From NCBI GenBank assembly GCA_032718475.1, contig JAUCBJ010001555.1, positions 26,825 to 90,824 of the forward strand: 64,000 nt of DNA, read 5' to 3'. A program made the position numbers and the translations under genes. Of the stretch, positions 5,120-49,957 are shown one piece after another. The DNA is from Nemertoderma westbladi. Lineage: Eukaryota; Animalia; Xenacoelomorpha. Under the pieces are notes generated by a model. That model had not been told where the DNA came from. It saw only the letters and a list, made by a program, of their open reading frames with translations, and ran no database searches. The first letter of the stretch is position 1; each line of letters opens with the position of its first letter.

Positions 5120-5972
5120 CTGTAATAATATGCCGGTTATCTTTACAGAAATCGACAGCACCGATGCGGCTCCCCGTTCCTTCAATCCGGTTGATAACCT
5201 CCCCAGTTACAGAATTTAGAATATAAATCAACCCGGTGTCCACCCCAACAGCAGCGATTCTGGATCCGTTCGGACTCAATACGATCCTCATGACCTTAGG
5301 AGTTGCTTCCTGTCTCCACAAGGTCTCCCCTGTACCAACACCGAAGCGATGGATCCCTCCTTCCCAATCTACCGACACCACTGACTCCCCATCCGGACCC
5401 CAACACAGACTCCAGACCACCCCACTGTGCCCCCGGTATTGATACAACATCTCCCGGGTTCCGGTCTCCCAAACTGTTACTGTTCCATCATCCGAACAGC
5501 TGGCCAACCGGGACCCGTTCGAGTCGAACCGAATACAGAGAACCGACCCAGAATGCCCCACCCAGTTCGTAACCTTATATTTCCCCCCAGTTATTGATAT
5601 AATAGAAATCCTCCCGTCGGACCCACAAGTTGCAATGACGTCCCGGTTGGAGGGATTTATATCTATTCCCAACCTCCATGTACCCTCCCCCCCACCAACC
5701 ACTAACTCCTCCCCCGGTACCTCCACTACGACCCTCCAACCGGTCGCTTCCCGCTCCCAGACAGTCACCAACCCCCCCACCAAGGTTCCCGAGACAACGC
5801 GGTTCCCGTCCGTAGAAACCGCGACTCTCCAGTAACCGATATAACCTCCGGATCGCGGTAGATCTTCCTTTTCGTAGAGAGTTGTTGAGTTTATGATACA
5901 GGGGAGGTTGTAAGACACAAAGACAACCTCCTCGGTACCCGGGATCATTTTGAGTTCCTCGATCGGCGCCAT
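5120..5972 (-). CDS. First coding exon of a WD40-repeat protein gene
   Basis: The ORF has several WD40 repeats (GHSGSVLCIRFDSNGSRLASCSDDGTVTVWE; GHSGVVWSLCWGPDGESVVSVDW). The last repeat stops mid-motif at ACA G|GTAATT, a phase-1 splice donor at 5119. Confidence 0.85.
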
Positions 5973-6806
5973 TGTTAGGGGGATTATTGAATCTAAAAGA
6001 TAAAATAAAGTAAATTGCCGCTAAATTGCTAAAGTACTAATAAGTATTACAGCGCTAGTAATTGTTATTAGATAGTCAGCGTAGCCAGTAATTATTTACT
6101 AGCTGTTTTTATTTATTCGGTTTGTATAAACGATCAATATAATATTTAATTTATTTTTAATGTTCCAGTAAAACAAAGTGTTCTAGAACCTTAATTGATA
6201 ACGAACTTGTTCTAGGAGATTAAAAAGTAGCGACAACTAGTTAGTTTAAATAAAATGTTCTAGAACAAAATAAATATGTTCTAGAACATGAATATTGAAC
6301 ATCCAGTATTTGTGCTACATACCGTAGTTAGTATAAGGTTTGGTATTTAATAAATATACGGAAGAAAACCTTTTCAAACTAAAATTTATTTAGTTTATTT
6401 TGCAGGAATTAGATGGATTAATTGGATGGAATTAGTTTGCAATTAGATAATTAGGAATTCATATAAATTAATTTAGAAATTCCAAACTTGTTTTCCTCGG
6501 TGGGCCAAATTTTGGTGCGGCACCAAATTTTGAAATCCTTTCAATAGTTCAATCGCTTGTGACAACTTATTTCTCGCGTTTTACAGGTTTATGGTTTATT
6601 TTAATACAAACCTTGTTTTTTTTCTCGGGAAAAAAAAGTTTTTATTATTAAATATTTGTTCTAGAACATAATTTTTTCAATAACAAATAGCTGACATTTT
6701 TCTTGAACATTTAAAAAAATATTATCAAAAATTAATTAGTGTTCATTTCGATGGTTTATTTGATTCAATTGCCGACTTGTTTTATTTTATTTGAACATAA
6801 TATTAT

Positions 6807-7344
6807 TGTGACGGGATCCAGGAGGGATCCCGATTTATCCGATGTGGTATTTAGTCCACGCGTCCCCGCCGTGTATAAGAGTGGAATAAAGATAACTGAG
6901 TTCTGAAGTTCGGTGTATAATAATAGGTTATAGGATATAGATATATTGTGAATTATACGGTAGGCGGGATACGGTAACTAAAGTCCCGTGATCCCCTAAC
7001 TAAACTAATTGACTGTACCCTACGCTAGCACTGCTGCACTGAGATAACTGAATCACTGATTAATAGGTTATTGGTTATATTGCACAGTGGCCTTACTGCT
7101 ACTCAATCGATGCCATTCCCCCCTCTGATTGGTTAATACCCTTGTTGGCGCCCCGTGGAGTATTCCCGTTCACTCCACCTATTTCCTCTGGGTTAGGGGT
7201 TTGGCCCCTGACCCTCTATTGTGTGCTTCCTTCCCACTCTTATTGGGATGGCACGAGTTGGTTAATTGCCCAATCTCGTGGCTCCCAATATTGCTTATCG
7301 GCTTACAACTTTATGGGGTGTTGGCGGGATTGAATAAGCTAACA
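6807..7344 (-). repeat. 3' LTR of BEL/Pao element 1
   Basis: Matches 23477-24014; the only difference I saw is tgcacAgtgg vs tgcacGgtgg. Confidence 0.97.
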
Positions 7345-7353
7345 CTCCCCCCC
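7345..7353 (-). promoter_or_regulatory. Polypurine tract of BEL element 1
   Basis: Minus strand GGGGGGGAG abuts the 3' LTR. Confidence 0.85.
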
Positions 7354-8054
7354 ATGCTATCTTCCCGGTAAGAAGATAGCATCAACCAAAAAGTGCGTTA
7401 CAATCCCGCTGGATCCCGATCTAGTATCGGGTGTGGGGTGGAATTCTTTTCTCTAGGAGCCGGTTTTCCAGGCCGCCCCCTATGGGTATGATAACGCTAC
7501 CCTGTGTGCCTGGCGTCTCATGTCGGGCCGATCGCGCTCACCTCTTCACACGACTTTTGTTTCCCCAACACTTTCGCCCTATCTCACCTTCACTCTCACC
7601 CTATCTCTCTCACATTCGGACCTCCCCGTCCCTTACTCAGCCTCTTATCCTCCCCCCCCCACACTCTAGAATCGCGTCCGCACTCTCTCTGCACTCCACT
7701 CTATCACTTCGATCCTCAACCTCACTTTGAGTGTTTTTATCTCTCCTGACGAACCTCCCCCCCCTCTCGTGCCGTCGCACTCAAGAAGTGTGAAATTGTC
7801 AGTTGTCTCGTCCATAGTGCCATAGTCAGTTATTCCCCCCAGTCCCACTAGCTAGTTGAGAAGGGTTGTATGACTATAGTACTTACTCCAAACGTATGTA
7901 TTTTACTGCTAATCACTACGTACGTACATACAAATTGCACTTATATGATTATTTGCATTAATTAAATTTGTACTTAATAGTTCGTACGTTACATGCGGCG
8001 CCTTCCAGGCGCACCACTTCCCAGTCTCAGTCTTATTCCCTCGTCTCCGGGAAC

Positions 8055-9256
8055 TTATCTGTTCCTCCTCACGTCCTCTTCCCTGGCCCGTTTCTTGGTT
8101 ATCACCGCTCCTCTGGCATCATCCGCTTTCTGCTTCCGGACCTTCGCTGCCACTTCCTTGCTGATCCCGGTCGTCGGCTCCTTGGGCGCTGGTGTTATTA
8201 AAGCCCGATACCGCTTCGCCGGTGGCCCCTCAGAATGGCCTGGTTGTCTCCCTCGTGTGGCGTCCCATAGGATCATTTTCATTGCCTTTGGTACGTGTTC
8301 CGCCAAGAAATCCCTAAACTCCCTCCGGTTCTCTGGTGTCCACCTGTCGAGGTACCGTTGCGTATTCATAACTCCGGCGAACGATGCCGCCGTTGCTACT
8401 TCTTGATAGGTAAACGGTAACCTTCGCTTTATGATTTCCATGTGGGTCTCCTGGTTTATGAGGAAGAAACCCCACTTGAACTCTTGGGCCTTCATGCGCT
8501 GGCGCGTCATGGCCCCGACGTCGGCCCACTCCTCGAACCTCGTGAACTTCTCCTCGTCGCTCATCCAGTCGCACTCGCGTCCGTAGTGCCCCCGAAAGTG
8601 GCACTTTGGACATCGGTTATGCAACCGTGGACACGCCCCCATCCTGTGACTTGGTTCTCTACAGTAGAGACAAAAGGTTCCCCGTTGGAACCGGTATAGG
8701 CAGCTGCTTTCCCGATGGGTCTGTCTCCCACAGTAGTCGCAGCCGAGTACCAATGTCTCGCGTCCCACCTCGTCTTTCGTCCCAAGCGATCTCCGCGGTC
8801 TATGGAGTCGCTGGTAGGCGAACTTCTCTACGTTGCTCTCCCTGTTTACGTCTATCTCTCCGCCCCTCTCGGGCATCGTCTCCCCGAATACTATCCGTGG
8901 TGCCGTTCCCGGTTGCTCGCCCAACCTGATGGTGCTCCCCGCGAAATCCATCGCCGGCTCCTCGTGCACCCAGGTCCGCTTGCCGGATCTGTTCCAGAAG
9001 GCCCTCGCCCCACTGGCCGTCACCACCCTTCCGCCAACCCAGTCCGTGTCCGAGTGGCCTATCCTCTCGATGGGCGGCATCTCTCCGAATTCGTCATCGT
9101 CGTCTTCCTCTTCCGGTAGTGTCTCCAATCCCGGTATCCCGATGGATCCACTATGTCCCTTCCCGCCTTGGCTCTCGCCCGTAGCTCTCCATCCCTCCAG
9201 CTCCCTTAGCTTCCTTGGCGGTTGGTCGCCCTCGGCGCCCGCTGGTATGGGTATCG
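8055..9256 (-). pseudogene. 3' half of the BEL element 1 accessory ORF: three CCHC zinc knuckles and a basic tail
   Basis: CDYCGRQTHRESSC, CLYCREPSHRMGAC, CPKCHFRGHYGREC; in frame with the 5' half once the Gypsy element and one TGTG copy are removed. Confidence 0.8.
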
Positions 9257-9419
9257 TGTGTGTAGTGGTCAACGAAAGAATAATATGATAAAACGAAATA
9301 TAATATTATTGCTGACTAACAGAATGAGATAACTGAATAAGCTGTACAGTATGAAGCAGTAGGACAGAGATGAAAAATGTAAGTTTTGAATATCCCGCCA
9401 AAGTCTCTACCCTACATAA

Positions 9420-10951
9420 CCCCCCCTCCAGCGTGCAAACGCGATCAGCCCGGAGAGAAGGTGGTCGGTGGGCGTCGGCGGCGGCCGAACCGGGAGAAAT
9501 TGGCCGAGTCCGGGATCAGCGGCGGCGTGGACTAGCATGGTGGCGTTGGCCAGGGCCTCCTTGGCCGCAGCGAAGGCGGAGGAGCAGTCGGATGACCAGG
9601 TAAAGACCGACCCGGCGGCGCCGGAGGCGGCTGCATGGAGTGGGGCAAGCACTTCAGCGATTCCGGGGGCGAAACGGTGGTAGAAATTGACCATCCCGAG
9701 GAACCGTTGGAGGCCGGCCTTGTCCGTGGGCGTGGCGAACTCGGTGATGGCGGTTACCTTGGAGGCGAGGGGAGTTACGCCGCGGGCGCTCACCGTGTGG
9801 CCGAGGTACTCGAGTTCGGGGAGGCCGAAACTACATTTCCTGCGTTGGACGACTAGGCCGTTGGCGACCAGGGCGCCGAAAACCTGTCACAAGTGCTCGG
9901 CGTGCTCCTCCTTCGTCTTGCTAGCCACCAAGATGTCGTCGAGGTAGACGAAGGCGCAGTCCAGGCCGCGGAGGACGCCGTCCATCAGTCGCTGGAATGC
10001 CTGCGCCGCGTTCTTCAGGCCGAACGGCATCCGCAGGAATTCCCAGAGGCCGAAAGGGGTGATGATGGCCATCTTGGGGGTGTCCGCCGCCCGCATCGGG
10101 ACCTGATGGTAGCCCCGGGCGAGGTCGATCTTGGAGAAGATCGTCGTGCCAGCCAAGCAGGCGTTGAAGTCCTGGATGTGGGGGAGGGGGTATTGGTCGG
10201 CCACGGTGGCCGCGTTGAGGCGCCTGAAATCGCCGCATGGACGCCAACCGCCCCCGGGCTTCGGCGCAATGTGCAGGGCCGACGACCACGGGGAATTGGA
10301 GCGCCGGATGATGCCGAGTTCTTCCATTTTGGCGAACTCGGCCTTGGCGACGGTCAGTTTCTCTGGGTCTAGACGACGAGCGCGAGCGTGAAGCGGGGGG
10401 CCTTCCATCACTATGTGGTGCTCCACCCCGTGGCGGTTGGCCACCCCGGGTTGGAACCGCGGGATGACGACCTCGGGGAACTCGTTGATGATGGCGTCAA
10501 AGGCGGAGATGGAGGCGACGTGAAGGCCGCTGACGCCGCTGTGGAAGGCGGCGGAGAAGGCTGGGATCACGTGGCCGTCGTCGAGGGAGATGAGGCGCCG
10601 GCTGCGGAGATCGATGGCGATGTTATGGGCGGCGAAGAAATCGGCTCCGAGGATGGCCCTGGGGACGGCGGCGATGGAGAACTCGAACCCGAAGTCCCGG
10701 GGGTGTGTTGTGCCAAAACGCATCCTGTGGGTGCGGTAGCCCCATGTAGAGATGGAGCTGCCGTTGGCCGCGATGAGGGGGGCGGTGGCCGGTCGCTTGC
10801 GGGCGGCGGCGTCGGCCGGGAGAACCGACACCTCCGCCCCACAGTCCACGAGGTAGACTATGCCTTGGTCGTCTCGCACCATGACAGTCTTCTTGGCTTG
10901 CCCCCGGGGAACGCCGACCGCCTGGGCTAGCGGCCGGCGTTGGCGTTTCCC
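9420..10951 (-). pseudogene. pol: Gypsy Pol (PR, RT; one in-frame TGA at 9887-9889; truncated near RNase H)
   Basis: LVDCGAEVS; WRPCGDFRRLN; FSKIDL; RMPFGLKNA; YLDDILV; the same frame continues after the stop (LQRFLGMVNFYHRF) and then runs straight into the PPT. Confidence 0.9.
10898..10951 (-). promoter_or_regulatory. -1 ribosomal frameshift signal: G GGA AAC plus stem-loop/pseudoknot
   Basis: Slippery heptamer at 10945-10951 in the Gag frame, followed by stem AACGCCGGCCGC/GCGGTCGGCGTT; loop GCCC can pair with downstream GGGC. Confidence 0.8.
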
Positions 10952-11763
10952 GACCTCGATGCGGGATGAGAACCGTCGGCCGGGCAGTCGATGGTGATGG
11001 GAACGGCCGAAGACGAAGGACACCTGCCGCGTTCGCAGCGGTGGGCTGCCGGACCGAAACGCCGGTGGTACCAGCATGTGCCGCTCGGGTTGTCGGCGGT
11101 GTTGCGCTGCTGCTGTGGCTGCGTGGTGGAACGACGGCCGATGACCGAGACCCTGGCAGTGGGGACGGTAGAAGAGGAGCGGGCCTCCAAGATGCGGTCA
11201 GCGTCGACGGCGAGTGCGTTGAGGTCCGTTTGGTTCGACCCGGCGAGGACGCCCCGGACCTCGGCTGGCAGCTGGGCCAGGAAGATGGCCCGCAGGAGCG
11301 TTTCCGGGTCGGCATTGAGGCCTCTAATGTGCCGGAGGAGGCCGGTTGGCTTGAAGTCGCCGAGGCCGGCCAGCGAGAGAAGTTCCGCATCTTTGCTCGC
11401 CTGGGTGCGGCCGAAGGCCCTGCAGAGGGCGGTCTTGATGCCGTCGTACAGGTCGTTGGCCGGGGGGTTGATGATGTCGGACCGGACCTCTGCGGCGACG
11501 GCGTTGTCAAGGCACGCGATGATGTGGTTGTACTTGGTGCTGTCCACCGTGATCCCCTTGACATCGAATTGGGCCTCCACCTGCCGGAACCAAACCTCCG
11601 GGTCGGAAGTCCAGAACGGAGGTAGTTTGAGAGCGACCGCAGAGATGGCGGCTGGGGTAGCCAGGGCGGCTTTTGCGCCGGTGGGGTTGGCGGCCAAGGA
11701 GGCGGCCATGGCGGCAGCGGCGGCTTCGGCGAAGGCCTGATGTTCCTCGCGTGTAAGAGGCAT
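10927..11763 (-). CDS. gag: Gypsy Gag (CsRn1-like; LKLPPFW...WFRQVEAQF; CWYHRRFG...C)
   Basis: Conserved Gag N-terminal motif and CxxH...C knuckle. Confidence 0.9.
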   Translation of the reverse strand: MPLTREEHQAFAEAAAAAMAASLAANPTGAKAALATPAAISAVALKLPPFWTSDPEVWFRQVEAQFDVKGITVDSTKYNHIIACLDNAVAAEVRSDIINPPANDLYDGIKTALCRAFGRTQASKDAELLSLAGLGDFKPTGLLRHIRGLNADPETLLRAIFLAQLPAEVRGVLAGSNQTDLNALAVDADRILEARSSSTVPTARVSVIGRRSTTQPQQQRNTADNPSGTCWYHRRFGPAAHRCERGRCPSSSAVPITIDCPADGSHPASRSGNANAGR

Positions 11764-11978
11764 GAGGACGAAGTAGGCGGGGAAAATAATCAGAAAGGGA
11801 GTCTGAATCTCCGGGTCACCAATGTAGTGGTCAACGAAAGAATAATATGATAAAACGAAATATAATATTATTGCTGACTAACAGAATGAGATAACTGAAT
11901 AAGCTGTACAGTATGAAGCAGTAGGACAGAGATGAAAAATGTAAGTTTTGAATATCCCGCCAAAGTCTCTACCCTACA

Positions 11979-13311
11979 TGTGCAACCCCGACGTCGACTG
12001 TTTCGGCGATCCCACCGTCCATCCCAATTCTCGCCCTAGAGACTCCCCCGAACTCCCTGACGAAGTCCAATGAAGTTTGTCTAGGCCCGCCTGTTCCTCG
12101 AAGCCGTAACTCTGTGCCCTGGCCTCCTCTTCCCTCTCCTCTGCTTCTATCCTCTCCCGTCTAGCGACTTCTTCCAGTCGCTTTGCTTCTCGTCTGTCCG
12201 CCTCTAGCTGCTCCCATCTCTGATATGGTGTATCTGTCTCCCCGTCTACCAGATGTCGGCTGTTGTAGTACACCGACTCGCCCTTCAGCCCCGGGTGGTC
12301 TACCAGACCGTCAAAGGCCACTTTAAAGGCTCTCCTGTAGCTTAGGGGTGATCCCGATAACAGAAATGCCCCTGGTTCCCTTTCGATAACTACGGTCATG
12401 AATAAGTTAAGCAAACTTATCATCATCCAGTCCTCCTGCAGGATATATCGCTTCTGATATACCTTTATCGCTCCTCTGCGAAACTGATATACCTCCTGCT
12501 TTCCCGGTCTCGCTCCCCACTTCAGCGAGTTCGCTAGTTCTGCTCCGTATTCTTCCCTAAACTTCCCCCAATCCATTGGTTTGTGGCATACGAGCCCCAA
12601 TAATTGGCCCATCGCCACCGCCCCGCATTGACCTGTGTTTTCGACCACCCCCAACCCATCCGGTGCCGTCATAGCCATAAAGACTTTCTGCATATCCAGG
12701 AGGTTGGTGGCGTCCGGACCGATGATCCTCTCCGCGTCCTCGCGAATCGCCGATCCCACTTTCGTCGTCGACTTCTCTCTTACTAAGACTTGTACCGCTT
12801 TCGGCAATCGGTCTAATTTCGGCCCGTCCTTCTTCCCATACGTCCCTAGGTCGAATAAGAAGATGTCCCAATTTGGCGCTGCCAAATGCAAGAGTATGGT
12901 CCTGGCCAACCCTGCCGTTCCTCGTCTCGAACCCGCTTCGTCTTCCACGGTTCCCTCGTCATCTAGGATCATATATCCTCCTCTGTTGACGGACTCTATG
13001 AATCTTTTCCAGTCCTTCCTCGGCGATTCCCTCGGATACTTCGGAATCCCGAACTTCGCCTCGTCTCCTTTCACCACGTAGTGGAAGTGTTGGAAGATCG
13101 CGTTGTCCAGCGACGGCGTCCCGTAGGTCCCGACCAACCGCTGTTCGTGCGCCTCCCGGAAGTGATCCTGCAGCGCTCGTGCCGCGTGACCCCTTTCCAA
13201 CCTCTCGTAGTATCCTCTCGTCTTCTCCTCTGGGTGTCTTTCGGTGAAATCCACCAATATTTCTTTTCCTCCTGACTCCGCCTTTCTCTTCCTGATCAGC
13301 TTACTCGCCAT
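11979..13311 (-). pseudogene. 5' half of the BEL element 1 accessory ORF: DEDDy/WRN-like 3'-5' exonuclease domain (disrupted by Gypsy insertion)
   Basis: ExoI YMILDDEGT, ILLHLA, IFLFDL, LPKAVQVLV...KVGSAIREDAERI (ExoII), LLDMQ, and ExoIII-like QKRYILQED. Confidence 0.75.
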
Positions 13312-13809
13312 TCCGAACACTACACTCGCTCACCTGCAGGGTGGTGCCTTACCAAGGCGCAATACAGATGAGTGAAGTATTTAAGATGTTTCGTACAGTT
13401 CGATAATGGCCTACTTTTCTACTTAACTGCGCCTTTCAAGCTTAATTTAATCTAATTAATTTCGGAGCTAGTAAATCAGCCTAATTTACAATTTCCGTCC
13501 GTTACTTTTATTATGTTCTAGAACGACTTTCCTTGTGTTACCACTATTTTTCGATTTTAGCCCTATTCTATTTATTTATTTATTTTGCTTTGATTCTACT
13601 GTCCTACTACTTACTACTGCCTATGGATTTATTCTATTCTCTCTCTGATCCATATTCTGGCCTACTCAGTGGGCCTATGCAGTACAGCAGTATGCGTCGT
13701 GTGGCCACACGATTTATCCAGCTGCACTCATATGCCCCCCTCTCGCTACTAACTCTACTTACTGCTAATTAATATCTATATCCTATTTACCCCTTTTATC
13801 TCTCGCTCT

Positions 13810-14672
13810 CTCTCTCTAACTAATGGTACTACGTACCTACTAACTCTAACTCTAACTAGGTACTACGTACCTACTAACTCTAACTAACTATTGGTACTAC
13901 GTACCTACTAACTCTAACTAACTATTGGTACTACGTACCCTCTAACTCTAACTAGGTACTACGTACCTAGTAACTCTCTAACTATCGGTACTACGTACCC
14001 TCTAACTCTAACTCTAACTAGGTACTACGTACCTACTAACTCTCTAACTATCGGTACTACGTACCCTCTAACTCTAACTAACTATTGGTACTACGTACCC
14101 TCTAACTCTCTAACTATCGGTACTACGTACCCTCTAACTAACTAACTCTAGGTACTACGTACCTACTAACTAACTAACTCTAGGTACTACGTACCTACTA
14201 ACTCTCTAACTAACTCTAGGTACTACGTACCTACTAACTAACTAACTCTAGGTACCACGTACCTACTAACTAACTAACTCTATTGGTACTACGTACCCTC
14301 TAACTCTCTAACTATCGGTACTACGTACCCTCTAACTAACTAACTCTAGGTACTACGTACCTACTAACTAACTAACTCTAGGTACTACGTACCTACTAAC
14401 TCTCTAACTAACTCTAGGTACTACGTACCTACTAACTAACTAACTCTAGGTACCACGTACGTACTAACTAACTAACTCTAGGTACTACGTACCTACTAAC
14501 TAACTAACTCTAGGTACTACGTACCTACTAACTAACTAACTCTAGGTACTACGTACCTACTAACTAACTAACTCTAGGTACTACGTACCTACTAACTAAC
14601 TAACTCTAGGTACTACGTACCTACTAACTAACTAACTCTGGGTACTACGTACCTACTAACTAACTAACTAAC
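13810..14672. repeat. Array of ~26 hairpin units (core TAGGTAC-TAC-GTACCTA plus (TAAC)n linker, ~28-36 bp period) inside BEL element 1
   Basis: I counted ~26 GGTACTACGTACC cores between the integrase stop and the extra ORF. Confidence 0.93.
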
Positions 14673-14794
14673 TGTGTATCTACTATTATTTTTATTTTAT
14701 TTTTATTTTTATTTGTGTGGGAAGGGCGTCTCGCCCTCAATCCCACCCCCCTCAGTCCAAAACTTGGACGACTAAACTTCACTCTAACTCCGCT

Positions 14795-16336
14795 TTAAGG
14801 TGCCCCTTCTAGAAGACAGCATTTACCTACCGCTCTCCTGTAGGTTTTTCTGTCCTTCGCACCTATCTTTCCACCTATCCGCACTTCTACCGATCGGACT
14901 CTTCCGTCCTCGTCGGAGTAGGTGCCTACAACTCTCGCCAACCGCCATTGGTTGTTGATGATAGTATCATCCGTGACGATTACGAGATCTCCCTCTCTTA
15001 ACTCCCTGTTTGGCTTCCTCCACTTGCTTCGCTTATGGAGCGTGGGTAGGTATTCTTCTACCCACCTCCTCCAATACTCTGCGCTAATTGCTTTAGCTAC
15101 TTTCCAACTTTGGCGGGAGTGTATATCATCTGGGTCTACACCCCGCATATCGATGGTCGCTGGCCTTTCCATCAGAAAATGGCTAGGCGTCAACACGTCT
15201 AATGACTCAGGGTCATCATTCTCCGGATATAGCGGTCTGCTATTAATGATCCCCTCGCACTTCGCAAGTACTGTTCGTAAAACGTCCTCAGTGACCATGT
15301 GGGTGTTCATTAACTTCGTCATTAGACGCTTTGAACTGCCCACCAATCTCTCGACGCATCCTAGTGTATGTGGTGCATACGGCGTCCTTCTCTCCCACTT
15401 TACTTGTCGTCTTCTCATGGCCGCCCTGACTTCTTCTCCTTCTAAGATGTCCAAGGCCTCTGCCATCTCACTCTCTGCGCCCACAAAGTTGGTGCCGTTG
15501 TCGCTGTATATCACTGCGATCGTCCCACCTTTGCGGTCCCTAAACCTTTCTAAGGCGTTAATGAATGCTGATGCGGTTGCATCTTGGGCGAGTTCTATCC
15601 CTACCGCCCGCGTATTGTTGCATACGAAGATAATACCGTAGCGTTTCTCCGTGTGTCGCATCACCTTGATCTTTATCGGCCCGAACATGTCCACACCGCA
15701 ATGCGTAAATGGCGGGTCGTGCTGTCTTACCCTACTCGCCGGTAGTGGCGCCATCTCCTGTACGGCTCGTTCCTTCTTCGCTCGTCGGCAGGTCTGGCAC
15801 TGCCCCACTACCGCTTTAACCTTCTTCCTTAGTTGTTTGACCCAATAGGTCCTCCTTATCTCTGTGAGGGTTCGGTTGGTGCCCCCATGCAGTATCGATT
15901 TGTGGGAGTCCCATATGATCTGGTGGACTATAGGCGATCCTGTGGGAATGATGATGGGTTTCGGTGGCACGACTATACTGTTGTTATATCCCACCCTAGA
16001 ATTCATTACTAGAATCCCATCCTCGTTGAGTTGTGGCGACAGCGTGATCAACTCGCTATCCCGTCGGAGGTGCTGTTGGTTACCGACGCGTTCCACCTCG
16101 TCGCCGTAGTTCTTGCGTTGTTCATAGCGGATCACTGCCTTGGCCGCTCCTTCCAGATCTATGGTTGTCCTGGTCTTCTTGTCCTTGCCGACTCCCGCAA
16201 GGAAATTCCCAAAGGCTCTCCAGTACGCCACTAGTTTCTTGGTCTTATACCAACTAGAACTGTAGCTGAGGAGTTTATCCGTCGGGTTATCGCACAGTTC
16301 CCTTCCTGGTTGCACGTCCCTAATCTCCCTCACCAT
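14795..16336 (-). CDS. pol: BEL element 1 integrase (frameshifted from RT-RH)
   Basis: HHCC zinc finger (HKSILH...CQTC), GVDMFGP, YSDNGTNFVGA, VERLVGS; BEL-type C-terminus (WVEEYLPTLHKRSKW...GDLVIV). Confidence 0.95.
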   Translation of the reverse strand: MVREIRDVQPGRELCDNPTDKLLSYSSSWYKTKKLVAYWRAFGNFLAGVGKDKKTRTTIDLEGAAKAVIRYEQRKNYGDEVERVGNQQHLRRDSELITLSPQLNEDGILVMNSRVGYNNSIVVPPKPIIIPTGSPIVHQIIWDSHKSILHGGTNRTLTEIRRTYWVKQLRKKVKAVVGQCQTCRRAKKERAVQEMAPLPASRVRQHDPPFTHCGVDMFGPIKIKVMRHTEKRYGIIFVCNNTRAVGIELAQDATASAFINALERFRDRKGGTIAVIYSDNGTNFVGAESEMAEALDILEGEEVRAAMRRRQVKWERRTPYAPHTLGCVERLVGSSKRLMTKLMNTHMVTEDVLRTVLAKCEGIINSRPLYPENDDPESLDVLTPSHFLMERPATIDMRGVDPDDIHSRQSWKVAKAISAEYWRRWVEEYLPTLHKRSKWRKPNRELREGDLVIVTDDTIINNQWRLARVVGTYSDEDGRVRSVEVRIGGKIGAKDRKTYRRAVGKCCLLEGAP

Positions 16337-19313
16337 CTGGGAGTATATCTCTTCTCCCTCTGAATCTCCCTTCTCCTTCTGATACTGGTTCCGAGCCCGG
16401 GTCCACCTTCCTCATCGGCGGCCAGGCCTCTCTATCGCTCAGAAATTGTGGCCCATGTTGCCACAATACTTCCTTCTTCAGGAAAGTGTGGCGTTCCACG
16501 CCCCTCGACAGCAAGTCCGCTGGGTTCTCATCTGTTGGGCAGTAGTGCCACCTTTCCAGTTCTGTGCTCGCCCTTATTTCGTCCACTCTATTCGCGACGA
16601 ATATCGGGTATCTCGTCTTTTCGTTGTGTAGCCAACCAAGCACTACCATGGAGTCCGTCCAGTAGTGTGTCTCCACTATGTTGGGAATTGTATCCACTAG
16701 GTAGGCTGTGGCTCTAACTCCTAGTCTCGCAGCTGTCAATTCTAACTTGGGAACAGATGCTGAATCTGGCGGCGTTGACTTAGCTTTGCTAAAGGCTAGT
16801 CTGGGCTTGTGAGGCCCCTCTCGTTGTACTAAATAGAGTGCCGCTCCGTATGCCTCTAACGACGCGTCGGAGAACATATGTAAGTCCAGATTCGTCATGT
16901 TCCCGTCCGGAAAATACACTCGCGGCATGTTGTATGTTCCCATCCTCTCCAAGTCTCCTGTCCATTTGCTCCACTGTTTCTTGATGTCCTCTGGTACCTC
17001 TACATCCCACTCATCCTTCAATTTATATACTCTCTTGAGTATCTGTTTCCCCGTGACTAGTAGTGGGGATGCTAGGCCTAGGGGATCGTATATCCTTGCT
17101 ATATACGATACATAACCCCTCTTCGTATGGGTGTCTGCGCCCTCCTGGCTCAGCTGATACTTCAGTTCGTCTGTTTTCCTATCCCACACGATTCCCAATG
17201 CCTTCTGCTGGGATTCCGTTCTCTTAATCGCCATGTCCTGTCCTTTGGCTGTTGTAGGGTTGTCCATGGTCGATTCTGGTTTCTTGTCTTCTATTTCCTT
17301 GATAAATTCTTCTGAACTGGATTGGAATTTGGTCAGGTTGAAGCCGGATCCTTTCAGGATGTCGCGAACCTCGCGCCCTGTTTCCAGTATCTCCTCAACC
17401 GTATTTCCAGACTCCATACCGTCGTCTACGTAGAAGCCGCGTCTGATCATATCGACGGCCCTACTGCTGTATCTATCTTCCTTCCCCTTTACCGTGTCTC
17501 TCACTGCCATAGTCGTCGTAAATGAGGACGACTTGGCCCCCATATTTTGTACTACCATCTTATACGCTGGTATTACCGGCGGTTCTTCTTCGCCGTTATA
17601 CCATAAGAAGCGTTGACTGTCACTATCTTCTTCCGTTACACGTACCTGGTTGAACATGCCTTCTATGTCACACGTGAAGGCGTGTTTCCCGTTTCGAAAC
17701 CTAAGTAACACCTCTATGCCCGAATTGTAAATATTTGGGCCTTCCAACAGGTAATCGTTTAAGCATTTTCCGTCGGTCTTTGCCGATGCATCGACTACCA
17801 TCCTCAGTTTACCTTTCTTTGGGTCTAATGCTACGTGGAGTGGCAGGTAGTATGTCCTGTCCGTATTCGGCTCGTCGACCGGTAACTCCACGGCCCATCC
17901 TTTCTCGACGTACTTCTTAATGGTTTTGTGAATGTACTCGTTCTTCTCGGGGCTCCGTTTTAGTGTTTGTTTCAGCTTGCGGAGTCTCGTGAGTACCATC
18001 CCTCTATTATCGGGTAGCGGTATCTTCGGTAGTTTCCATACCATTCCTATTGTATACCGCCCCTCATCACACGTCATCGATTCCTCCACGCTTTGTAGAG
18101 CCTGTTTGTCTTCTACCGAGGTCCCGACCCCGGTCTCTTTCAGTCCCTCAAAGTCTTGCCTGAGCAGTCTTTTAAGCTGCTCCTCTGCTCCCTCATCACC
18201 CATTTCCTGCATTGTTCCCGCGAACATGCATCCTGATGTCTCCGACATCCTGAATGGTATCTTGCTCTTAATTGGACCACTCAGCGTCCACCCGAATGGC
18301 GTTAGTATAGCCACCGGGTCGCTCTGCTTGTCTTCGCCGAAGACCGTTTGCATTCTTTCGTGGGCCGTCGGGCAGTCCATTCCTACTATGATGGATACCT
18401 TCCTAACGTCCACGTCTGGGATCGAGAAGTCAATGTCGTCCAGGAATTTGTATTGCTCGACCTCGATGTTGGTTGGCCGCCTGGCATTGATGTTAATTGA
18501 CTCTATTACTTGGATGGGGTCGATGGTTGCCCCATAATCGCATCCTGGTGCTACTGCTGCAATTGCGCACCGTCCTGTCCTCATCTCTAGGATCTCATCT
18601 TTGCTAGAGATGGTTGTTACCGCCATCCTGCTTGGCCTTGTTCTCAATCCTATTTCTTCGGCTACCCATTCCTCTACTAATGTGAAGGCAGCTCCGCTAT
18701 CAACCAGCATCAGTGTTGTTACTGATCGATTGCCTTCCCCGATCACTCGTACTGGTACTACTCCAAGTAGCACTGTTCCTCTCTTCTTCGCCCCTACTGT
18801 GCTCGTTGCCATCGTCTGGCCTCTCCTTTGGCCAAACTTGACCGGCTTCTCTTGGCATTCCCTGGCCTTGTGTCCACTCTTCACACATCGCGAGCAGATT
18901 TTATTGCTCGACGCGTAATCTATCTGGTCTTGCCTCGGTAGCGCCTGCCAGTACCTGCAGTTCATGGTTTTATGAAGCGCATTTGCGTGTAACTGGCATT
19001 TGCTCTTTGGGTCGTAGCCCTCTTTATACAATGCATTGCGTATCGCAGTTATGTTTGTACCAAAGTCCCTACTATTCTTATTGACTGGATTTGGCCTACT
19101 GGACGTACTGGGGTTATGTTTATTCATGTTGTTATTGTTCCCCTGTCCGTCCCTTGATGTTGTCTTATCTTCGTTTGTCTGTGGACTTGCAGTCCCCTGC
19201 GTCGCTGCATATGGCAATGATTGCCTGAGTCTCGGTAATGCGTTCGATGTGTTGTGCTCTGGTTTGGGCCTGTGGTGAGTCTGTCTTTGGTCCCTTTCCC
19301 AGGCTGTCTTCAC
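16320..19313 (-). CDS. pol: BEL element 1 Cys/His knuckles, protease, reverse transcriptase and RNase H
   Basis: CSRCVKSGHKAREC; LVDSGA; YYLPLH...LRMVVDAS; DIEGMFNQV; FYVDD; LHMFSDASLEAYGA; WTDSMVVL; NPADLLSRG. Confidence 0.95.
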   Translation of the reverse strand: MKTAWERDQRQTHHRPKPEHNTSNALPRLRQSLPYAATQGTASPQTNEDKTTSRDGQGNNNNMNKHNPSTSSRPNPVNKNSRDFGTNITAIRNALYKEGYDPKSKCQLHANALHKTMNCRYWQALPRQDQIDYASSNKICSRCVKSGHKARECQEKPVKFGQRRGQTMATSTVGAKKRGTVLLGVVPVRVIGEGNRSVTTLMLVDSGAAFTLVEEWVAEEIGLRTRPSRMAVTTISSKDEILEMRTGRCAIAAVAPGCDYGATIDPIQVIESININARRPTNIEVEQYKFLDDIDFSIPDVDVRKVSIIVGMDCPTAHERMQTVFGEDKQSDPVAILTPFGWTLSGPIKSKIPFRMSETSGCMFAGTMQEMGDEGAEEQLKRLLRQDFEGLKETGVGTSVEDKQALQSVEESMTCDEGRYTIGMVWKLPKIPLPDNRGMVLTRLRKLKQTLKRSPEKNEYIHKTIKKYVEKGWAVELPVDEPNTDRTYYLPLHVALDPKKGKLRMVVDASAKTDGKCLNDYLLEGPNIYNSGIEVLLRFRNGKHAFTCDIEGMFNQVRVTEEDSDSQRFLWYNGEEEPPVIPAYKMVVQNMGAKSSSFTTTMAVRDTVKGKEDRYSSRAVDMIRRGFYVDDGMESGNTVEEILETGREVRDILKGSGFNLTKFQSSSEEFIKEIEDKKPESTMDNPTTAKGQDMAIKRTESQQKALGIVWDRKTDELKYQLSQEGADTHTKRGYVSYIARIYDPLGLASPLLVTGKQILKRVYKLKDEWDVEVPEDIKKQWSKWTGDLERMGTYNMPRVYFPDGNMTNLDLHMFSDASLEAYGAALYLVQREGPHKPRLAFSKAKSTPPDSASVPKLELTAARLGVRATAYLVDTIPNIVETHYWTDSMVVLGWLHNEKTRYPIFVANRVDEIRASTELERWHYCPTDENPADLLSRGVERHTFLKKEVLWQHGPQFLSDREAWPPMRKVDPGSEPVSEGEGRFRGRRDILPDGEGD

Positions 19314-21063
19314 TATAGACTGGGTCCGTTATTAGTTCAGCCTCGTAATTTAAGAAGTTTGACATTTCTTCTAAACCTGGTTCCGCACCCTTCTTGTCTC
19401 GGGTGGAGAAAGCGATCTTCCTCCATTTGTTGCGCAGCCAGCTCGGTAGTGCCTGCGCTATCGTGGTGATGTTATTGGACGCGTTGAGCTCGTATGGCGC
19501 GTCTAGCGTCTTCAGCACGATCAGCGCCTTCTCGACTTTGTTAGCAAACGTCTTAATGCTAACGGGATTATCCTGTAGGCCACCCGATGTTATGCCTCTC
19601 AGCGTTTGCCTGATGATCTTGGCCGGGTGCCCGTATTCCCTATCCAGTGCCCGCCATGCTGTCGTGAAGCCGCCCTCTATTCCCTGATATTGCCTCACGA
19701 TGTCGTATGCTGGGCCTCCCGTGTACACTTGTAGATACTTTAGGCACTCCGCCTGCGTCAAGTTTTTTGTTAGTATTTCGTTACTATACATTCGCCGAAA
19801 CTGTAAGTATTCTTCCGGCCTGCTCCCATCGAATTTGAACGGTTCCACGGGTGGTAATTCGATCCTCGTTTTCAACGCATCGATCAACGTGGCCATCCCC
19901 ATTGCCTGCGCTTCTAATGGATTCGACGGGTGCTGTATAGTTTCCCCTGTCTGGTGCGGTTCGTCCGTCCTATTTCTTGATCTTCTCTGACTCGGATATG
20001 TCATCGGGGGTAGCGGCCCCCTCCATATGTCTGTATCACACGACCTGTTTTCATCTAGGGGTCTCGTTGTTCTTGTTCCTGTCGGGGTATATTGTTGATA
20101 TTGTGATGGGGGAATGTCACCCTGTCCCCCCCCCCCCACCGGTATGTCTGGTACTGGGGTTGATGTTAATATGTTGGGGCCCATACACCTATCCGCAATA
20201 ATTCCCCCCTCCCCTGGGTATATGTTATGTCCCTGCATGCTGTAGTCATACTGCTGTGCTGGTACCGGTATAGGCCTATCAGCTTCTGGCCTACTCGCCG
20301 GTATGTATTCCGCGACTTCCGGGTTTAATCCCGTTGTCCGCGCTATCCTATCGCCTACATTGCCTCTCTCAGTATGGCCTACGGTATGTGCAGTAAGACC
20401 TACAGTATGCCCTACAGTCTGCATGTGTTGCTCGGGATCGAAGTTTATTCTTCTCGAATAATCCTCCCCGCGGCTACCGTATTCTCGATCGGTAGGTATA
20501 TTCCGTCGGAAAGTTTCTCTTCGACCCCCCTCTCCACTGTTTTCATCTTCGTACCGGTACATCGCGTACCCCTCTCTCGGCGTGTAATGCGTCTCACCGG
20601 ATCGCATCCCTCCGGGGCGACGGCAATCTCCCGGAGTCCGACCCCACTGACTCTCCGTTCTCATCTCGACTACCGACGGCTCGCTGTCCGTCCTCGCTCT
20701 TCTATCGTTTGCGGCGATACTTCTACTACTGTCTTCCTCTCTTCTCCTATCAGTGGAATATTCCCGCTCACGAGATCTCTCGTCGACCTCCCGGTTAAAC
20801 CCCACTGTTCTTCTTTCCTCCTCTGATCGGGCTCGATGCTCCGTCTGCCCTCCCGCGACGTCAACCTGTCTTTCTCTGCTCGATCGCACGTCGCTGGGGA
20901 TACTCGCAATCCCCCTATTACTTTCCGTCGCCGGTTGTTGCGGTTTACCTTGTTCGGCCCTCGCATTGTCCGCTGACGGCTGTGGGACACTCTCTGCCCC
21001 CCCCCCCCCCCTCTCGCCGCTAACTCTCTGTTGTGGGGCCCTTGTAGCCCCCCCCCCCCCCAC
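19165..21063 (-). CDS. gag: BEL element 1 Gag (DUF1759-like capsid region)
   Basis: LPPVEPFKFDG...YLQFRRMY...LKYLQVYTGGPA...AWRALDREYG is typical BEL/Pao Gag. Confidence 0.85.
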   Translation of the reverse strand: MGGGGATRAPQQRVSGERGGGGAESVPQPSADNARAEQGKPQQPATESNRGIASIPSDVRSSRERQVDVAGGQTEHRARSEEERRTVGFNREVDERSREREYSTDRRREEDSSRSIAANDRRARTDSEPSVVEMRTESQWGRTPGDCRRPGGMRSGETHYTPREGYAMYRYEDENSGEGGRRETFRRNIPTDREYGSRGEDYSRRINFDPEQHMQTVGHTVGLTAHTVGHTERGNVGDRIARTTGLNPEVAEYIPASRPEADRPIPVPAQQYDYSMQGHNIYPGEGGIIADRCMGPNILTSTPVPDIPVGGGGQGDIPPSQYQQYTPTGTRTTRPLDENRSCDTDIWRGPLPPMTYPSQRRSRNRTDEPHQTGETIQHPSNPLEAQAMGMATLIDALKTRIELPPVEPFKFDGSRPEEYLQFRRMYSNEILTKNLTQAECLKYLQVYTGGPAYDIVRQYQGIEGGFTTAWRALDREYGHPAKIIRQTLRGITSGGLQDNPVSIKTFANKVEKALIVLKTLDAPYELNASNNITTIAQALPSWLRNKWRKIAFSTRDKKGAEPGLEEMSNFLNYEAELITDPVYSEDSLGKGPKTDSPQAQTRAQHIERITETQAIIAICSDAGDCKSTDKRR

Positions 21064-21468
21064 CCGCTACATTCTACTTCGCTACCTCTCGCCCCGCTAC
21101 TATATATCTCTCTAGTCGACACATCAACCCTACCACAGTCGGGTCTGTTCACCCCCGCCTCTCCCTCTGCTATTGCGTGGCCTTCCAGGCCCTCTACTCC
21201 CTGCCTACCAACTACGCGGCCTACCAGGCCCTCTGCTCCCTGTCTACTAACTACGTGGCCTACCAGGCCCTCTGCTCCCTGTCTACTAACTACGTGGCCT
21301 ACCAGGCCCTCTGCTCCCTGTCTACGTAGGCCCGACGTGTTTACATTAATAGCACCCATATTGGAAACGGAATTAATTTGCTCATTTGAAACAAAATTAT
21401 TTGTATTATTCTGCGCGACTACGTTATCTGAATTATTTTGTAAATTCGGGCTAAGATCATTATTTGAA

Positions 21469-23397
21469 TTATTCGAATTTTATTTTGCAGTTATTTTGTA
21501 GGTCTGAATTCGAGTTATTATTTTGATTATTTGAATTATTTTGCGTAACTACATCAATATTAGGATTATTTTCTACATTAACACTGGGATTGTTCTGATT
21601 TAAATTTAAATTACTACCACTAGGCAAAGTATTTCCTGCAATAAAGGTTTGATTAGTGTTATCCCATACGGTACTATTAATATCAACAACGTCTACAGTA
21701 CCAATATTATTATTACCCCCCCCGCTCGTACGGTCGCACCAGTCTTGAGTCTGTCGTGCGGTCCCTGTCAGTGGGGTATTAATAAATGTTTCTACGGCCC
21801 CCGGCTCCCTAAAAATACCCGAGCCGGCCCCGCTTTCAGACGGCGCTTTTTGCACGAGTTGCAACTCGTGCGCCCGTTTAATCTCATCTCCCGCAGACTC
21901 ACTCTGTTGTCTCTCTATTTTCTTGTTTTCTCCCTCAGTCTCTGCCACTCTTCTCTCACGCTCCCGGGTGTCCCTAATGGCCGACTCTGCAGCACTCTTA
22001 ATACTCTCCCTTCGTCTCACTTCGCGCTCCTTACGTTCCTTTTCCTCTCTCGCCTCACGCTCCTTGCGTTCCGCCTCACGCTCCTTGCGTTCCCTTTCCT
22101 CCCTTGCCTCACGCTCCTTGCGTTCCCCTTCCTCTCTCGCCTCACGCTCCTTGCGTTCCTTTTCCATTCTCGCCTCACGCTCCTTGCGTTCCGCCTCACG
22201 CTCCTTGCGTTCCCTTTCCTCCCTTGCCTCACGCTCCTTGCGCCCCCTTTCCTCTCTCGCCTCACGCTCCCTACACTCCCTTTCCTCTATCTCATCATAC
22301 TCCCTTAGGCTTTTCAAAGCCCTTTCGGCCCTCTCTCTTGTTTCTTTAAGCAATGCCGTTTCCCTCTCTAACCGCACTCTCCCTTCCTCTAGCCGTTCCT
22401 TCATTTCTCTATGATCTTTCGCTGCCATGCTGAGACGATATTCGGCACCTATCTCTCTCACCGCTCTTCCTTTCGCGGAGGATGTAACAGACTTATCGGT
22501 TACGACGGATTTCCCCCGCCTTCCCGACCTACTGATTTCCCCCCGCTTCCCGGAGCTTTCTCCGACCGACGAGGCCGAATCCTCGGGGTTAACCTCGGAT
22601 TCGCCCCCTTCGGGTTCCCTCCAGCCTACTGGTTTTACTCCCCGGGCATCGACCAAGTATGGCCCTATGTACACTGACGCTACACTAGGTTCCATACTCC
22701 CACACTCCCATAGTTCAAACAGTTCCCCGGCAATCCCGTGTGCTCTCGTTTCGGCTAGTTCTCTTTGCCCAAAACGTATTAGGTAATTTATGTGTCTATC
22801 CGACTCACCTAGTCGCTTTCTCAGTCTCACCTCGTCTACCTTCGCCCCTTCCTTCTTGGCGTCCTTTATCATCCTTCGGGTCGCGTTGTAGGCCCGTCGA
22901 AGTCGCTCTGATACCCCGACGTCCTCGTCGCCGACCTCTCCTCCGGCCCTCCGGGTTCGACGTCGTACCGGCGGCTCCACCGTCGCCGTTCCGGTGGGCC
23001 GTCCGTCGCCCTCGGCCTGTTGCTGGCCGGCGACATCGGTACCAATCTCTCCTCCGTCTCTTCGCGTCCGGCGTCGTACCGTCGGCCCCACCGTCGCCGT
23101 TTCGGTGGGCCGCTCGTCGCCCTCGGCCGGTAGCTGGCCGGCGACATCGGCGCGCCGTTCTCCGTCTCGTGTCGACTCGTCTCTTTCTCCCTCGACCTCG
23201 TTCTCTCTATCCTCCGGCTCGAGTCCCTCTCCTCTCAACTCGGATTCTGATTCCAGACGGTCCCCCTCATCTTGGACTTCCGGGTCACCCGTTACCGATC
23301 GCTCCGGCGTCGTGGGCCTATACCGCCTGGTCGCGGCCTCGCGGATCGTTTGATCTTCGTCCGGGGTCCGCGTCGGTGTCTCGCCCGATTCACTCAT
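21469..23397 (-). CDS. BEL element 1 polyprotein, N-terminal low-complexity/coiled-coil Gag extension (frameshifted from downstream parts)
   Basis: Starts ~80 bp inside the 5' LTR; has (REAREERERKE)-type repeats and an Asn-rich tail that continues in another frame into ORF 20670-21359. Confidence 0.75.
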   Translation of the reverse strand: MSESGETPTRTPDEDQTIREAATRRYRPTTPERSVTGDPEVQDEGDRLESESELRGEGLEPEDRENEVEGERDESTRDGERRADVAGQLPAEGDERPTETATVGPTVRRRTRRDGGEIGTDVAGQQQAEGDGRPTGTATVEPPVRRRTRRAGGEVGDEDVGVSERLRRAYNATRRMIKDAKKEGAKVDEVRLRKRLGESDRHINYLIRFGQRELAETRAHGIAGELFELWECGSMEPSVASVYIGPYLVDARGVKPVGWREPEGGESEVNPEDSASSVGESSGKRGEISRSGRRGKSVVTDKSVTSSAKGRAVREIGAEYRLSMAAKDHREMKERLEEGRVRLERETALLKETRERAERALKSLREYDEIEERECREREAREERGRKEREAREERERKEREAERKEREARMEKERKEREAREEGERKEREAREERERKEREAERKEREAREEKERKEREVRRRESIKSAAESAIRDTRERERRVAETEGENKKIERQQSESAGDEIKRAHELQLVQKAPSESGAGSGIFREPGAVETFINTPLTGTARQTQDWCDRTSGGGNNNIGTVDVVDINSTVWDNTNQTFIAGNTLPSGSNLNLNQNNPSVNVENNPNIDVVTQNNSNNQNNNSNSDLQNNCKIKFE

Positions 23398-23476
23398 CTC
23401 GTTTGTGGCTGATGATTCGGCTAGCTAGGTTACAGTTCTTGATGTTCAACTAGGGCGGCAGCTCGGATTTAGTTAC

Positions 23477-24014
23477 TGTGACGGGATCCAGGAGGGATCC
23501 CGATTTATCCGATGTGGTATTTAGTCCACGCGTCCCCGCCGTGTATAAGAGTGGAATAAAGATAACTGAGTTCTGAAGTTCGGTGTATAATAATAGGTTA
23601 TAGGATATAGATATATTGTGAATTATACGGTAGGCGGGATACGGTAACTAAAGTCCCGTGATCCCCTAACTAAACTAATTGACTGTACCCTACGCTAGCA
23701 CTGCTGCACTGAGATAACTGAATCACTGATTAATAGGTTATTGGTTATATTGCACGGTGGCCTTACTGCTACTCAATCGATGCCATTCCCCCCTCTGATT
23801 GGTTAATACCCTTGTTGGCGCCCCGTGGAGTATTCCCGTTCACTCCACCTATTTCCTCTGGGTTAGGGGTTTGGCCCCTGACCCTCTATTGTGTGCTTCC
23901 TTCCCACTCTTATTGGGATGGCACGAGTTGGTTAATTGCCCAATCTCGTGGCTCCCAATATTGCTTATCGGCTTACAACTTTATGGGGTGTTGGCGGGAT
24001 TGAATAAGCTAACA
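23477..24014 (-). repeat. 5' LTR of BEL/Pao element 1
   Basis: TGTGACGGG...GCTAACA, followed by TSD ATTAT. Confidence 0.97.
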
Positions 24015-25608
24015 ATTATAATTGTTCTACAGTAGCTACCATTTAAAATCTCTAAAAAATTTATTGAAAAAATGCTGTAAAATTAAAAAAAAAACGCCTC
24101 ACACATCGGCTATGTAAAAGTGCCCCTTCAATATTACCCCTGTTTTATTGTTAACAACTGTTCTATTCCTATTAGCTATAAAAGTACAATTTTATTTGTT
24201 ACACATTTATTAGCGGGATTATAACTATCTCTAATGCTGGGCTACGGCAATAAAAGTTATTTTGCCCTAGTAGGGCAAAATAACCATGTTATTCCCTCTT
24301 AGAAGTAGTGAAGTGTTACATACTGACATACAAACATAGGAACCGGTAATGCTGCTGTACTCGTCTTAGGTCTCTTGTGTGTCACATCAGGTGCAAATCA
24401 GGCATTCAGACCACCAACTAGTTTTGTATTTCATGTGAAAATATTTTTCATGAATTTCTTAAATTTTATTTGTGAAAATATTTTTCGTGGAATTTCTTAT
24501 ATTTTATTACATGTGTTGAAAGAGCATCGAAGTAGAAAATGTTTGCAGCTTTGTATGTAATTTGAGCAAAATCCATGCTCAATAGTAAACTCAATATATT
24601 TACTCAATAGTAAATAACTTAATATATTCTTAATAAACTTAATATATTCCAGAACCATTAAATTATTTAACATTGAGTAAGGCAGCATCAGGAGGACGAG
24701 TACAGTAATTAGAACCCCAGAACTACGATAGCAATATAGTTTGCTAATAATTTACTTTAATAACTATTACAACAATCCGGTTAAGGATATTGTTGGTATA
24801 AATTGAATTGCACTAGCACATACAGAAATATAAGTAAAAAAAGTACCAATTTAAGAATAAAATTACGTATTATATGGCAAAAAACGTAGGGCCTAGCACA
24901 TTTTTTTCAATATTCTCTCGACCCTTTATTAACTTCGCTGGCGCTCGGGAAATAAAATAACTCGAGTATAGTGGAAAAAAGTTGTAACTTTTATTTTCCT
25001 AAGTACTAAATACTTAATTATACTAATAAAACGTATTTAATGTAAACAATACCGTCTGTGGGTAATGGATACATGACTTGTCCACCAAAAATACTATTCA
25101 ATTAATTCAGCCAATTTAGTTATATATCCCATTTGAAGTTTATGCAATATGTTACCCCTAGCGGCCAATATAGGAAAATATAGAAATTTTAGAAAGTAAA
25201 CAATTTAAATAAGTTTGACATCAATTTTTACTAACAAATTCGGGTGATTTTTGATGATCGAATCTTACGGCGATTGGATGAATTAAGCCTAGAGCTATAC
25301 AACACACATGACACAGTAATGTTTTACCTTGGAACTTGGGTGTTATTATTCCCTTGGGCAAAATAACACCTATGCAATTAATGAAATAAAGTGAAACACA
25401 CCGAAAATTTTCCAATTCCCTTGGGAAAAATAAATATAAACACCCCCAAAACTTTCCAAGCCCCATTTTGTAAACTCTTCCCCCAAACAATGCCCTTTTA
25501 GAATCTGTAAATAGTTGTTAAGGGACAAAAATAATCGAAATGCATACCATAATAAATGTGTAACAACTGACTTATTCCCCAGAAGTTAGTTATTTTCCCA
25601 GTTATTTA

Positions 25609-28920: not shown

Positions 28921-28940
28921 GGTGGGTTCTACCCTTATTA

Positions 28941-49921: not shown

Positions 49922-49953
<32 letters not shown>

Positions 49954-49957
<4 letters not shown>

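Follow-up and report, generated by a model that had tools for sequence, protein, structure and literature searches.

What does a BEL/Pao-type retrotransposon encode behind its integrase, if not an envelope protein? This question is raised by a 64,000-nt stretch of Nemertoderma westbladi DNA (GCA_032718475.1, JAUCBJ010001555.1:26,825-90,824, forward strand; hereafter the window), in which an element of this type, encoded on the minus strand, carries an extra open reading frame (ORF) between its integrase gene and its 3' long terminal repeat (LTR). We tentatively favour the reading that a repeated BEL/Pao-type family has this ORF as its regular third gene and that the gene product, a predicted RNase D/WRN-type 3'-to-5' exonuclease with three CCHC knuckles, may trim the RNA of the element itself at unpaired 3' ends. 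The separate parts of this reading differ in strength, and they are weighed in turn below.

A third gene in the place of env

The first-pass annotation had proposed that removal of a nested Gypsy element fuses two ORFs of 448 and 405 amino acids in frame, giving one sense accessory gene in the position that the envelope gene (env) would take. The coordinates bear this out. The N-terminal piece (11980..13311, minus strand) has 444 codons without a stop and an ATG at 13311, the C-terminal piece (8055..9260, minus strand) has 401 codons (9260-8058) followed by a stop codon (8057-8055), and by coordinate arithmetic the two are in the same phase across the insertion. Joined, they make a single ORF in sense orientation, about 844 codons long, in the interval between integrase and 3' LTR; this total agrees with the proposal, the sizes given for the two pieces being off by a few residues. 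The other five frames of each half contain 6-26 stops. Synonymous codon use of the extra ORF is in line with that of the gag-pol next to it, with values of 0.11 and 0.09, while two other elements of the window give -0.06 and -0.04. This suggests that the gene has resided in the element for a long time.

In this copy the ORF is split by a young Gypsy insertion of 2.7 kb (9261..11978, minus strand), which has identical 156-bp LTRs, a 4-bp target duplication, and gag (DUF7041), protease and reverse transcriptase (RT) regions. No integrase ORF was seen in 9261-11978, where pol ends in RNase H. The insertion is young, as judged from its identical LTRs, and probably non-autonomous; its primer site is of the TGG type, unlike that of the element that hosts it.

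Uninterrupted copies, which had been named as a check on the proposal, were seen directly in public sequencing runs. Contigs of these runs were matched to the window at a likeness cut-off of 85%, with junction sides of 23-39 letters. A net 2722 bases are skipped at the Gypsy site in 5 of the 15 joints listed, with 14 more beyond these, in the DNA runs X1, X3 and X4; copies of the extra ORF without the insertion therefore exist. Since X1 and X3 derive from one sample, the support amounts to two samples from two studies, and the window itself may stem from one of these. Summed contig depth is about 9,000-79,000 in bins lying wholly in the ORF pieces and below 800 in the Gypsy interior; these values are not copy numbers, and the extra-ORF family is highly repeated.

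The differences between copies were also inspected. Among 12 insertions or deletions (indels) listed, with 20 more beyond these, seven lie in non-coding parts of the element, five in the Gypsy and none in the extra ORF; one of them is placed 11 bases upstream of the ATG at 13311, which fits this codon as the start. A gap test used the 22 BEL-derived pieces among 31 contig pieces listed (15,196 more exist; the nine Gypsy pieces were left out): gaps occur in 1 of 17 extra-ORF pieces (221 substitutions, 2 gaps) and in 4 of 5 pieces of the 3' non-coding flank (39 substitutions, 12 gaps), a contrast with a Fisher p of 0.003 for these listed pieces. A candidate splice acceptor is present at 13334 on the minus strand, about 21 bases upstream of the extra-ORF ATG, with pyrimidines at 8 of the 15 preceding bases. 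Finally, seven low-depth contigs of run X5, which is labelled as another organism, match the extra ORF and its flank (window positions 7400-13700); they may stem from a relative, from prey or from contamination, and the run, which is perhaps one of RNA, was left out of account for expression.

The exonuclease-like domain and the knuckles

The N-terminal half had been read as an exonuclease of the DEDDy class, and its motifs are found where the first-pass annotation had placed them. The DEDDy-like domain covers about residues 100-300 of the extra ORF (within 11980..13311, minus strand): the ExoI motif (12952..12969) has the D-x-E pair D117 and E119, the ExoII motif (12736..12762) has D192, and the ExoIII variant (12430..12456) has Y289, with E293 in the usual Asp column and D294 adjacent to it. 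Since the last motif thus reads Y289-x3-E293, with the Asp one residue later than in the Y-x3-D form, we call the domain DEDDy-like and not a canonical member of the class. It stays below the Pfam cut-off of PF01612, and no PF01612 match is listed.

Two kinds of evidence connect the domain to the RNase D/WRN-type enzymes. In a language-model search of the ESM Atlas, the top matches (0.95, 0.95 and 0.94) are unnamed fungal clusters of about 213 amino acids, a match at 0.94 is a plant cluster in which 34% of the members have PF01612, and 24 of 30 matches belong to the PF01612 set; a score of 0.95 was reached by 1 of 100 shuffles, a null taken on whole proteins. Moreover, of four profiles built from bacterial PF01612 genes, the best, a combined profile of 64 sequences, scored 11.7 bits over residues 100-196 (ExoI to ExoII); none of 1000 shuffles and none of the 94 other ORFs of the window attained this value, and hhalign gave this profile a probability of 80%. 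For the other three, the score was reached by 1/1000 shuffles (40 mixed genes), 96/1000 (2 EXD2-like genes) and 2/1000 (120 EXD2-like proteins). In a global alignment D117, E119, D192, K244, W265 and Y289 fall in invariant columns, and 9 of 13 family-conserved columns are matched in order, as in 2 of 300 shuffles. These weak but concordant tests uphold a DnaQ-like (RNase D/WRN-type) domain, while the ExoIII variant is not significant alone. We consider it highly probable, judging from these comparisons, that the N-terminal domain is DnaQ-like. That it is also catalytically active is less certain, though somewhat more likely than not; metals would be bound by D117, E119, D192 and either E293 or D294.

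Structure prediction added little. A single-sequence model reached a predicted local distance difference test score (pLDDT) of 36, and a structure search with it found no match. An alignment-guided fold (pLDDT 70) matched DnaQ-like structures with Z 12-13, and the PF01612 proteins of its guiding alignment with Z 13.3 and a root-mean-square deviation of 3.4 over 183 aligned residues; this result is circular and is not counted as evidence. Relatives of the N-terminal piece at near length and of the C-terminal piece among longer proteins were sought and none was found, nor did the extra ORF have any among PDB sequences, phages, or viral, metagenome or prokaryote contigs; an exact look-up of seven proteins found 0/7.

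The C-terminal half is organized as had been described: it starts with an acidic linker, continues with three CCHC knuckles and closes with a basic tail. The knuckles (8571..8741, minus strand) are of the form CX2CX4HX4C, lie at 8741-8700, 8672-8631 and 8612-8571, and are 9 and 6 residues apart. Their plain retroviral spacing is unlike that of the BEL/Pao triple box as described in PMC554778. An origin from gag knuckles was considered and set aside, as the pairwise matches between the two sets are weak (E 0.004 and 0.010). In the ESM Atlas the C-terminal piece reached 0.88 at best (zf-CCHC, DUF8363, AIR2-like), matches that serve as leads only. Between the two halves, at about residues 366-405 (within 11980..13311), lies a charged helix, a predicted coiled coil. 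As no transmembrane segment was found in either piece (top 19-residue hydropathy 1.3 and 0.57), the extra ORF is not an env gene; N-x-S/T sites number 0 and 1 in the two pieces.

What the protein may act on

If the domain is an exonuclease, what is its substrate? One candidate lies in the element itself. The primer-binding position (23468..23476, minus strand) does not start with TGG. For BEL/Pao elements the profile of the International Committee on Taxonomy of Viruses (ICTV) gives a site of 18 nt for the 3' end of tRNA-Arg or tRNA-Gly (PMC8742986). The position seen here can pair with the element's own LTR: LTR nt 363-371 (23644..23652, minus strand) and the first 9 nt past the 5' LTR are complementary without a mismatch, which makes the former a candidate self-primer. 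A complement of at least 9 nt to the post-LTR start occurred in 20 of 5000 shuffled LTRs, the energy of the 14-nt duplex was reached by 21 of 1000, and a second helix flanks the LTR-primer pairing in the predicted fold. No tRNA gene was found in the 64-kb window, and no Rfam match in 6500-24500.

The signature tilts our interpretation toward RNA-end or primer processing. The extra ORF would be expressed from a spliced or subgenomic RNA; as the weakest step of the proposal, the knuckles would bind single-stranded RNA and the nuclease would shorten its 3' end up to the border of the duplex. The self-primer would be one candidate substrate, because the sequence just behind the LTR pairs with the LTR itself and such a pairing needs a flush 3' end for extension by RT. 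3'-end processing of element RNA is also among the roles proposed for the DEDDy ORF3s of rotifer retroelements (PMC5408684). One may go further and imagine a BEL/Pao lineage that primes itself and also supplies the enzyme for maturing the primer, with the knuckle-exonuclease trimming LTR RNA to the duplex border. We regard this extension as rather improbable; if true, RT would have a tRNA-free primer, reverse transcription would start in a new way, and a retroelement DEDDy gene would for the first time have a function assigned to it.

Several observations weigh against the trimming of the element's own RNA by a conserved exonuclease. As to the enzyme, the exonuclease domain has no Pfam or NCBIfam match at E up to 10, phmmer found no real relative of the extra ORF among 1.84 billion representatives, the three other profiles are weaker than the 64-sequence one and cover parts of residues 100-196, and the ExoIII region alone, with Glu for Asp, is at chance (350 of 1000 shuffles). 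As to maintenance of the gene, some low-depth contigs carry deletions inside the extra ORF, as expected of decayed copies, the pieces of the gap test are selected and non-independent and their 3' flank is indel-prone, and the rotifer DEDDy ORF3s, as analysed in PMC5408684, show no significant departure from neutrality. As to the substrate, the fold of the whole LTR-leader RNA has a z of only -1.68 (12 of 200 shuffles), and in Tf1 the self-primer is made by RNase H alone, with a cut after base 11 and before base 12 (PMC7175516), so that the one case worked out so far does without an exonuclease. Apart from these points, the single phmmer match, a 14-fold repeat protein, was rejected as spurious, as it covers a 19-residue stretch only.

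An explanation that follows closely, though it too is somewhat unlikely by itself, is counter-silencing: the same enzyme would destroy or mis-trim PIWI-interacting RNAs (piRNAs), small interfering RNAs or their precursors and so shield the transcripts of the element. The family is highly repeated and young, and the product of a separate third gene would not need to be packaged. The idea is built on analogy with a host DEDDy relative, Nibbler, which trims piRNA 3' ends (bioRxiv 2020.07.08.193029); against it, the link between ORF3 and copy number in rotifers is described as unclear (PMC5408684). The self-priming signature provides a concrete substrate to set against small RNAs, and the nuclease domain is confined to a single uninterrupted segment of the ORF, so that it can be assayed by itself.

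Less probable is a role without catalysis, in which exonuclease fold, knuckles and coiled coil would bind element RNA and route or chaperone it. The altered ExoIII motif would suit such an adaptor, and the element's own gag has two Cys-His boxes in place of the usual three, so that the extra knuckles might compensate. Egalitarian, the model for this idea, has an inactive exonuclease domain. It serves as an RNA-binding dynein adaptor (10.1101/2025.08.03.668247). What speaks against an Egalitarian-like function here is that the domain retains the ExoIII Tyr and three of the four catalytic acids, with a different acid in the fourth column.

We think it still less likely that the ORF is real and its N-terminal domain not DnaQ-like at all, the motifs matching by chance. 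The lack of any match in the standard libraries, the pLDDT of the single-sequence model and the trial of four profiles would be in keeping with this; it is countered by the agreement of two methods of different kind, the ESM Atlas and the profile, and by motifs that are collinear over 180 residues. Proofreading or trimming of cDNA ends beside RT, on DNA 3' ends, had been suggested as well. DEDDy domains do include polymerase proofreading domains (PMC5408684), and such a function might be useful for a long genome of 14.5 kb; however, the ORF is separate and unfused to pol, its knuckles would point to RNA, and there are many substitutions between copies. We found no support for this role and consider it very improbable. 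Least probable of all is that the extra ORF belongs to another repeat sitting inside this BEL/Pao copy: its linkage to gag-pol is known from this copy alone, but no terminal repeats flank it, the ORF and the 3' flank are deeply covered without a break until less than 50 bases remain to the polypurine tract, and its codon use follows its own gag-pol.

The carrier, its neighbours and known systems

The element that carries the extra ORF had been named as BEL/Pao, and its paired LTRs, Pfam domains and pol order agree with this. Its 5' LTR (23477..24014, 538 bp, TG...CA) differs at one position from the 3' LTR (6807..7344, 538 bp), and a 5-bp target duplication (24015-24019 and 6802-6806) flanks the whole, all of which indicates a recent and complete insertion; the polypurine tract (7345..7352) abuts the 3' LTR. 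The span is 17.2 kb, or about 14.5 kb after removal of the nested Gypsy. The gag region (19165..23424) consists of three overlapping ORFs of different frame, with DUF1759 in the last; gag knuckles, protease, RT and RNase H (Peptidase_A17) follow at 16320..19328, and an integrase with DUF5641 at 14795..16411, in a frame that differs from that of RT owing to a frame break in this copy. All these parts are on the minus strand, and a tandem array of about 32-34-bp units, unassigned to a strand, fills 13812..14737 between integrase and extra ORF. Gag and pol together take up five ORFs that overlap in different frames, so that several breaks in this copy are probable. The 651-codon ORF that opens the element (21469-23424, minus strand) encodes a long Glu/Arg-rich repeat helix; it has no Pfam match and probably makes up the first part of a very long gag.

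DUF1759 (43.9 bits), Peptidase_A17 (138.4 bits) and DUF5641 (86.1 bits), which we take to be marks of BEL/Pao elements, all score above the Pfam cut-off and stand in the order gag-protease-RT-RNase H-integrase; by these domains alone the element is filed as BEL/Pao type. Two Cys-His boxes were found in the gag of this copy where BEL/Pao elements are described with three. Since Tas, a named member, likewise has no triple box in Gag (PMC554778), we treat this feature as descriptive and not as defining. A search with the integrase yielded one relative, a 1.5-kb contig of 34% identity that is too short to show a third ORF.

The remainder of the window holds a second, distant BEL/Pao-type gag-pol (51008-59443, minus strand; 1908 + 902 codons), which has the triple Cys-His box in full and for which no paired LTR was found; 46000-51008 contains no minus-strand ORF of more than 111 codons. 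A host gene for a WD40-repeat protein (5112-6020, minus strand) adjoins the 3' LTR, and an intronless basic helix-loop-helix host gene lies at 35811-36590 (minus strand). Long 42-bp and 20-bp tandem arrays occupy 26356-28990 and 1739-~2800, the 42-bp array reading as Pro/Thr/Ser-rich. By eye, we also noted a gag-like ORF without a Pfam match (29165-30349, plus strand), a fragment of a long interspersed nuclear element (LINE; 43862-44377, minus strand) and a 946-codon LINE endonuclease-RT ORF (61064-63904, minus strand).

How does this element compare with known systems? With Belpaoviridae it shares LTRs, the order of its domains and BEL/Pao-specific Pfam domains, and some members also have a third gene after pol (PMC8742986; PMC554778, PMC3118150). 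According to the ICTV profile, genomes of this family measure 4.2-10 kb and the third genes described are env-like (PMC8742986), whereas the element of N. westbladi, once the Gypsy is discounted, comes to about 14.5 kb and has a third gene that is not env, no TGG-type primer site, and only two Cys-His boxes in gag. Pairing of the primer-binding position with the element's own LTR RNA is known from Tf1/sushi elements, but Tf1 is gypsy-type and uses 11 bases (PMC7175516), whereas here there are nine perfect pairs.

On the side of the enzyme, the extra ORF has the ExoI D-x-E and the ExoII Asp in common with the PF01612 proteins RNase D, WRN, EXD2 and Nibbler (mut-7), and keeps their conserved Lys, Gly, Lys, Trp, Gln and Tyr columns in order. 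It differs from them in its low identity (14-22% to 61 aligned bacterial members), in insertions after ExoI and before ExoIII, in the Glu of the ExoIII Asp column, in that no HRDC domain is seen, and in its fusion to three knuckles. Mobile elements that combine a DEDDy exonuclease with a CCHC finger are known as well, namely the Dada DNA transposons of Laccaria and Ectocarpus, in which, however, the exonuclease domain lies inside the DDE transposase (PMC3706591).

A close likeness is to the bdelloid rotifer elements Juno, Vesta and Athena/Terminons, whose DEDDy ORF3s have a predicted activity (PMC5408684, PMC6431247, PMC5718144). As described in PMC5408684, their RNase D-like gene is also a separate sense ORF after pol, in the place of env, and its acidic motif is varied, as in the extra ORF. 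Yet their carriers are gypsy-type or Penelope-like and their motif is DEED, whereas here, compared by description, the carrier is of BEL/Pao type, and the extra ORF has Asp as its third acid and Glu in the fourth column. The rotifer ORF3s are described without coiled-coil and transmembrane parts, and the passages on them do not mention CCHC (PMC5408684). The first-pass annotation knew of no precedent in BEL/Pao elements, and our literature searches likewise found no exonuclease ORF in this group; Repbase, GyDB, subscription journals and supplements lay outside these searches and may hold the architecture. The word 'exonuclease' has 0 occurrences in the main text of the 2011 BEL/Pao survey (PMC3118150). 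The feature itself is real: a BEL/Pao-type family that bears a self-priming signature has a third gene in which a DEDDy-like domain is joined to three knuckles. Such a carrier would mean that, after the gypsy-type and Penelope-like elements of rotifers, a third retroelement lineage acquired this class of enzyme, in the present case combined with knuckles of nucleocapsid type and preserved intact in a family that is highly repeated.

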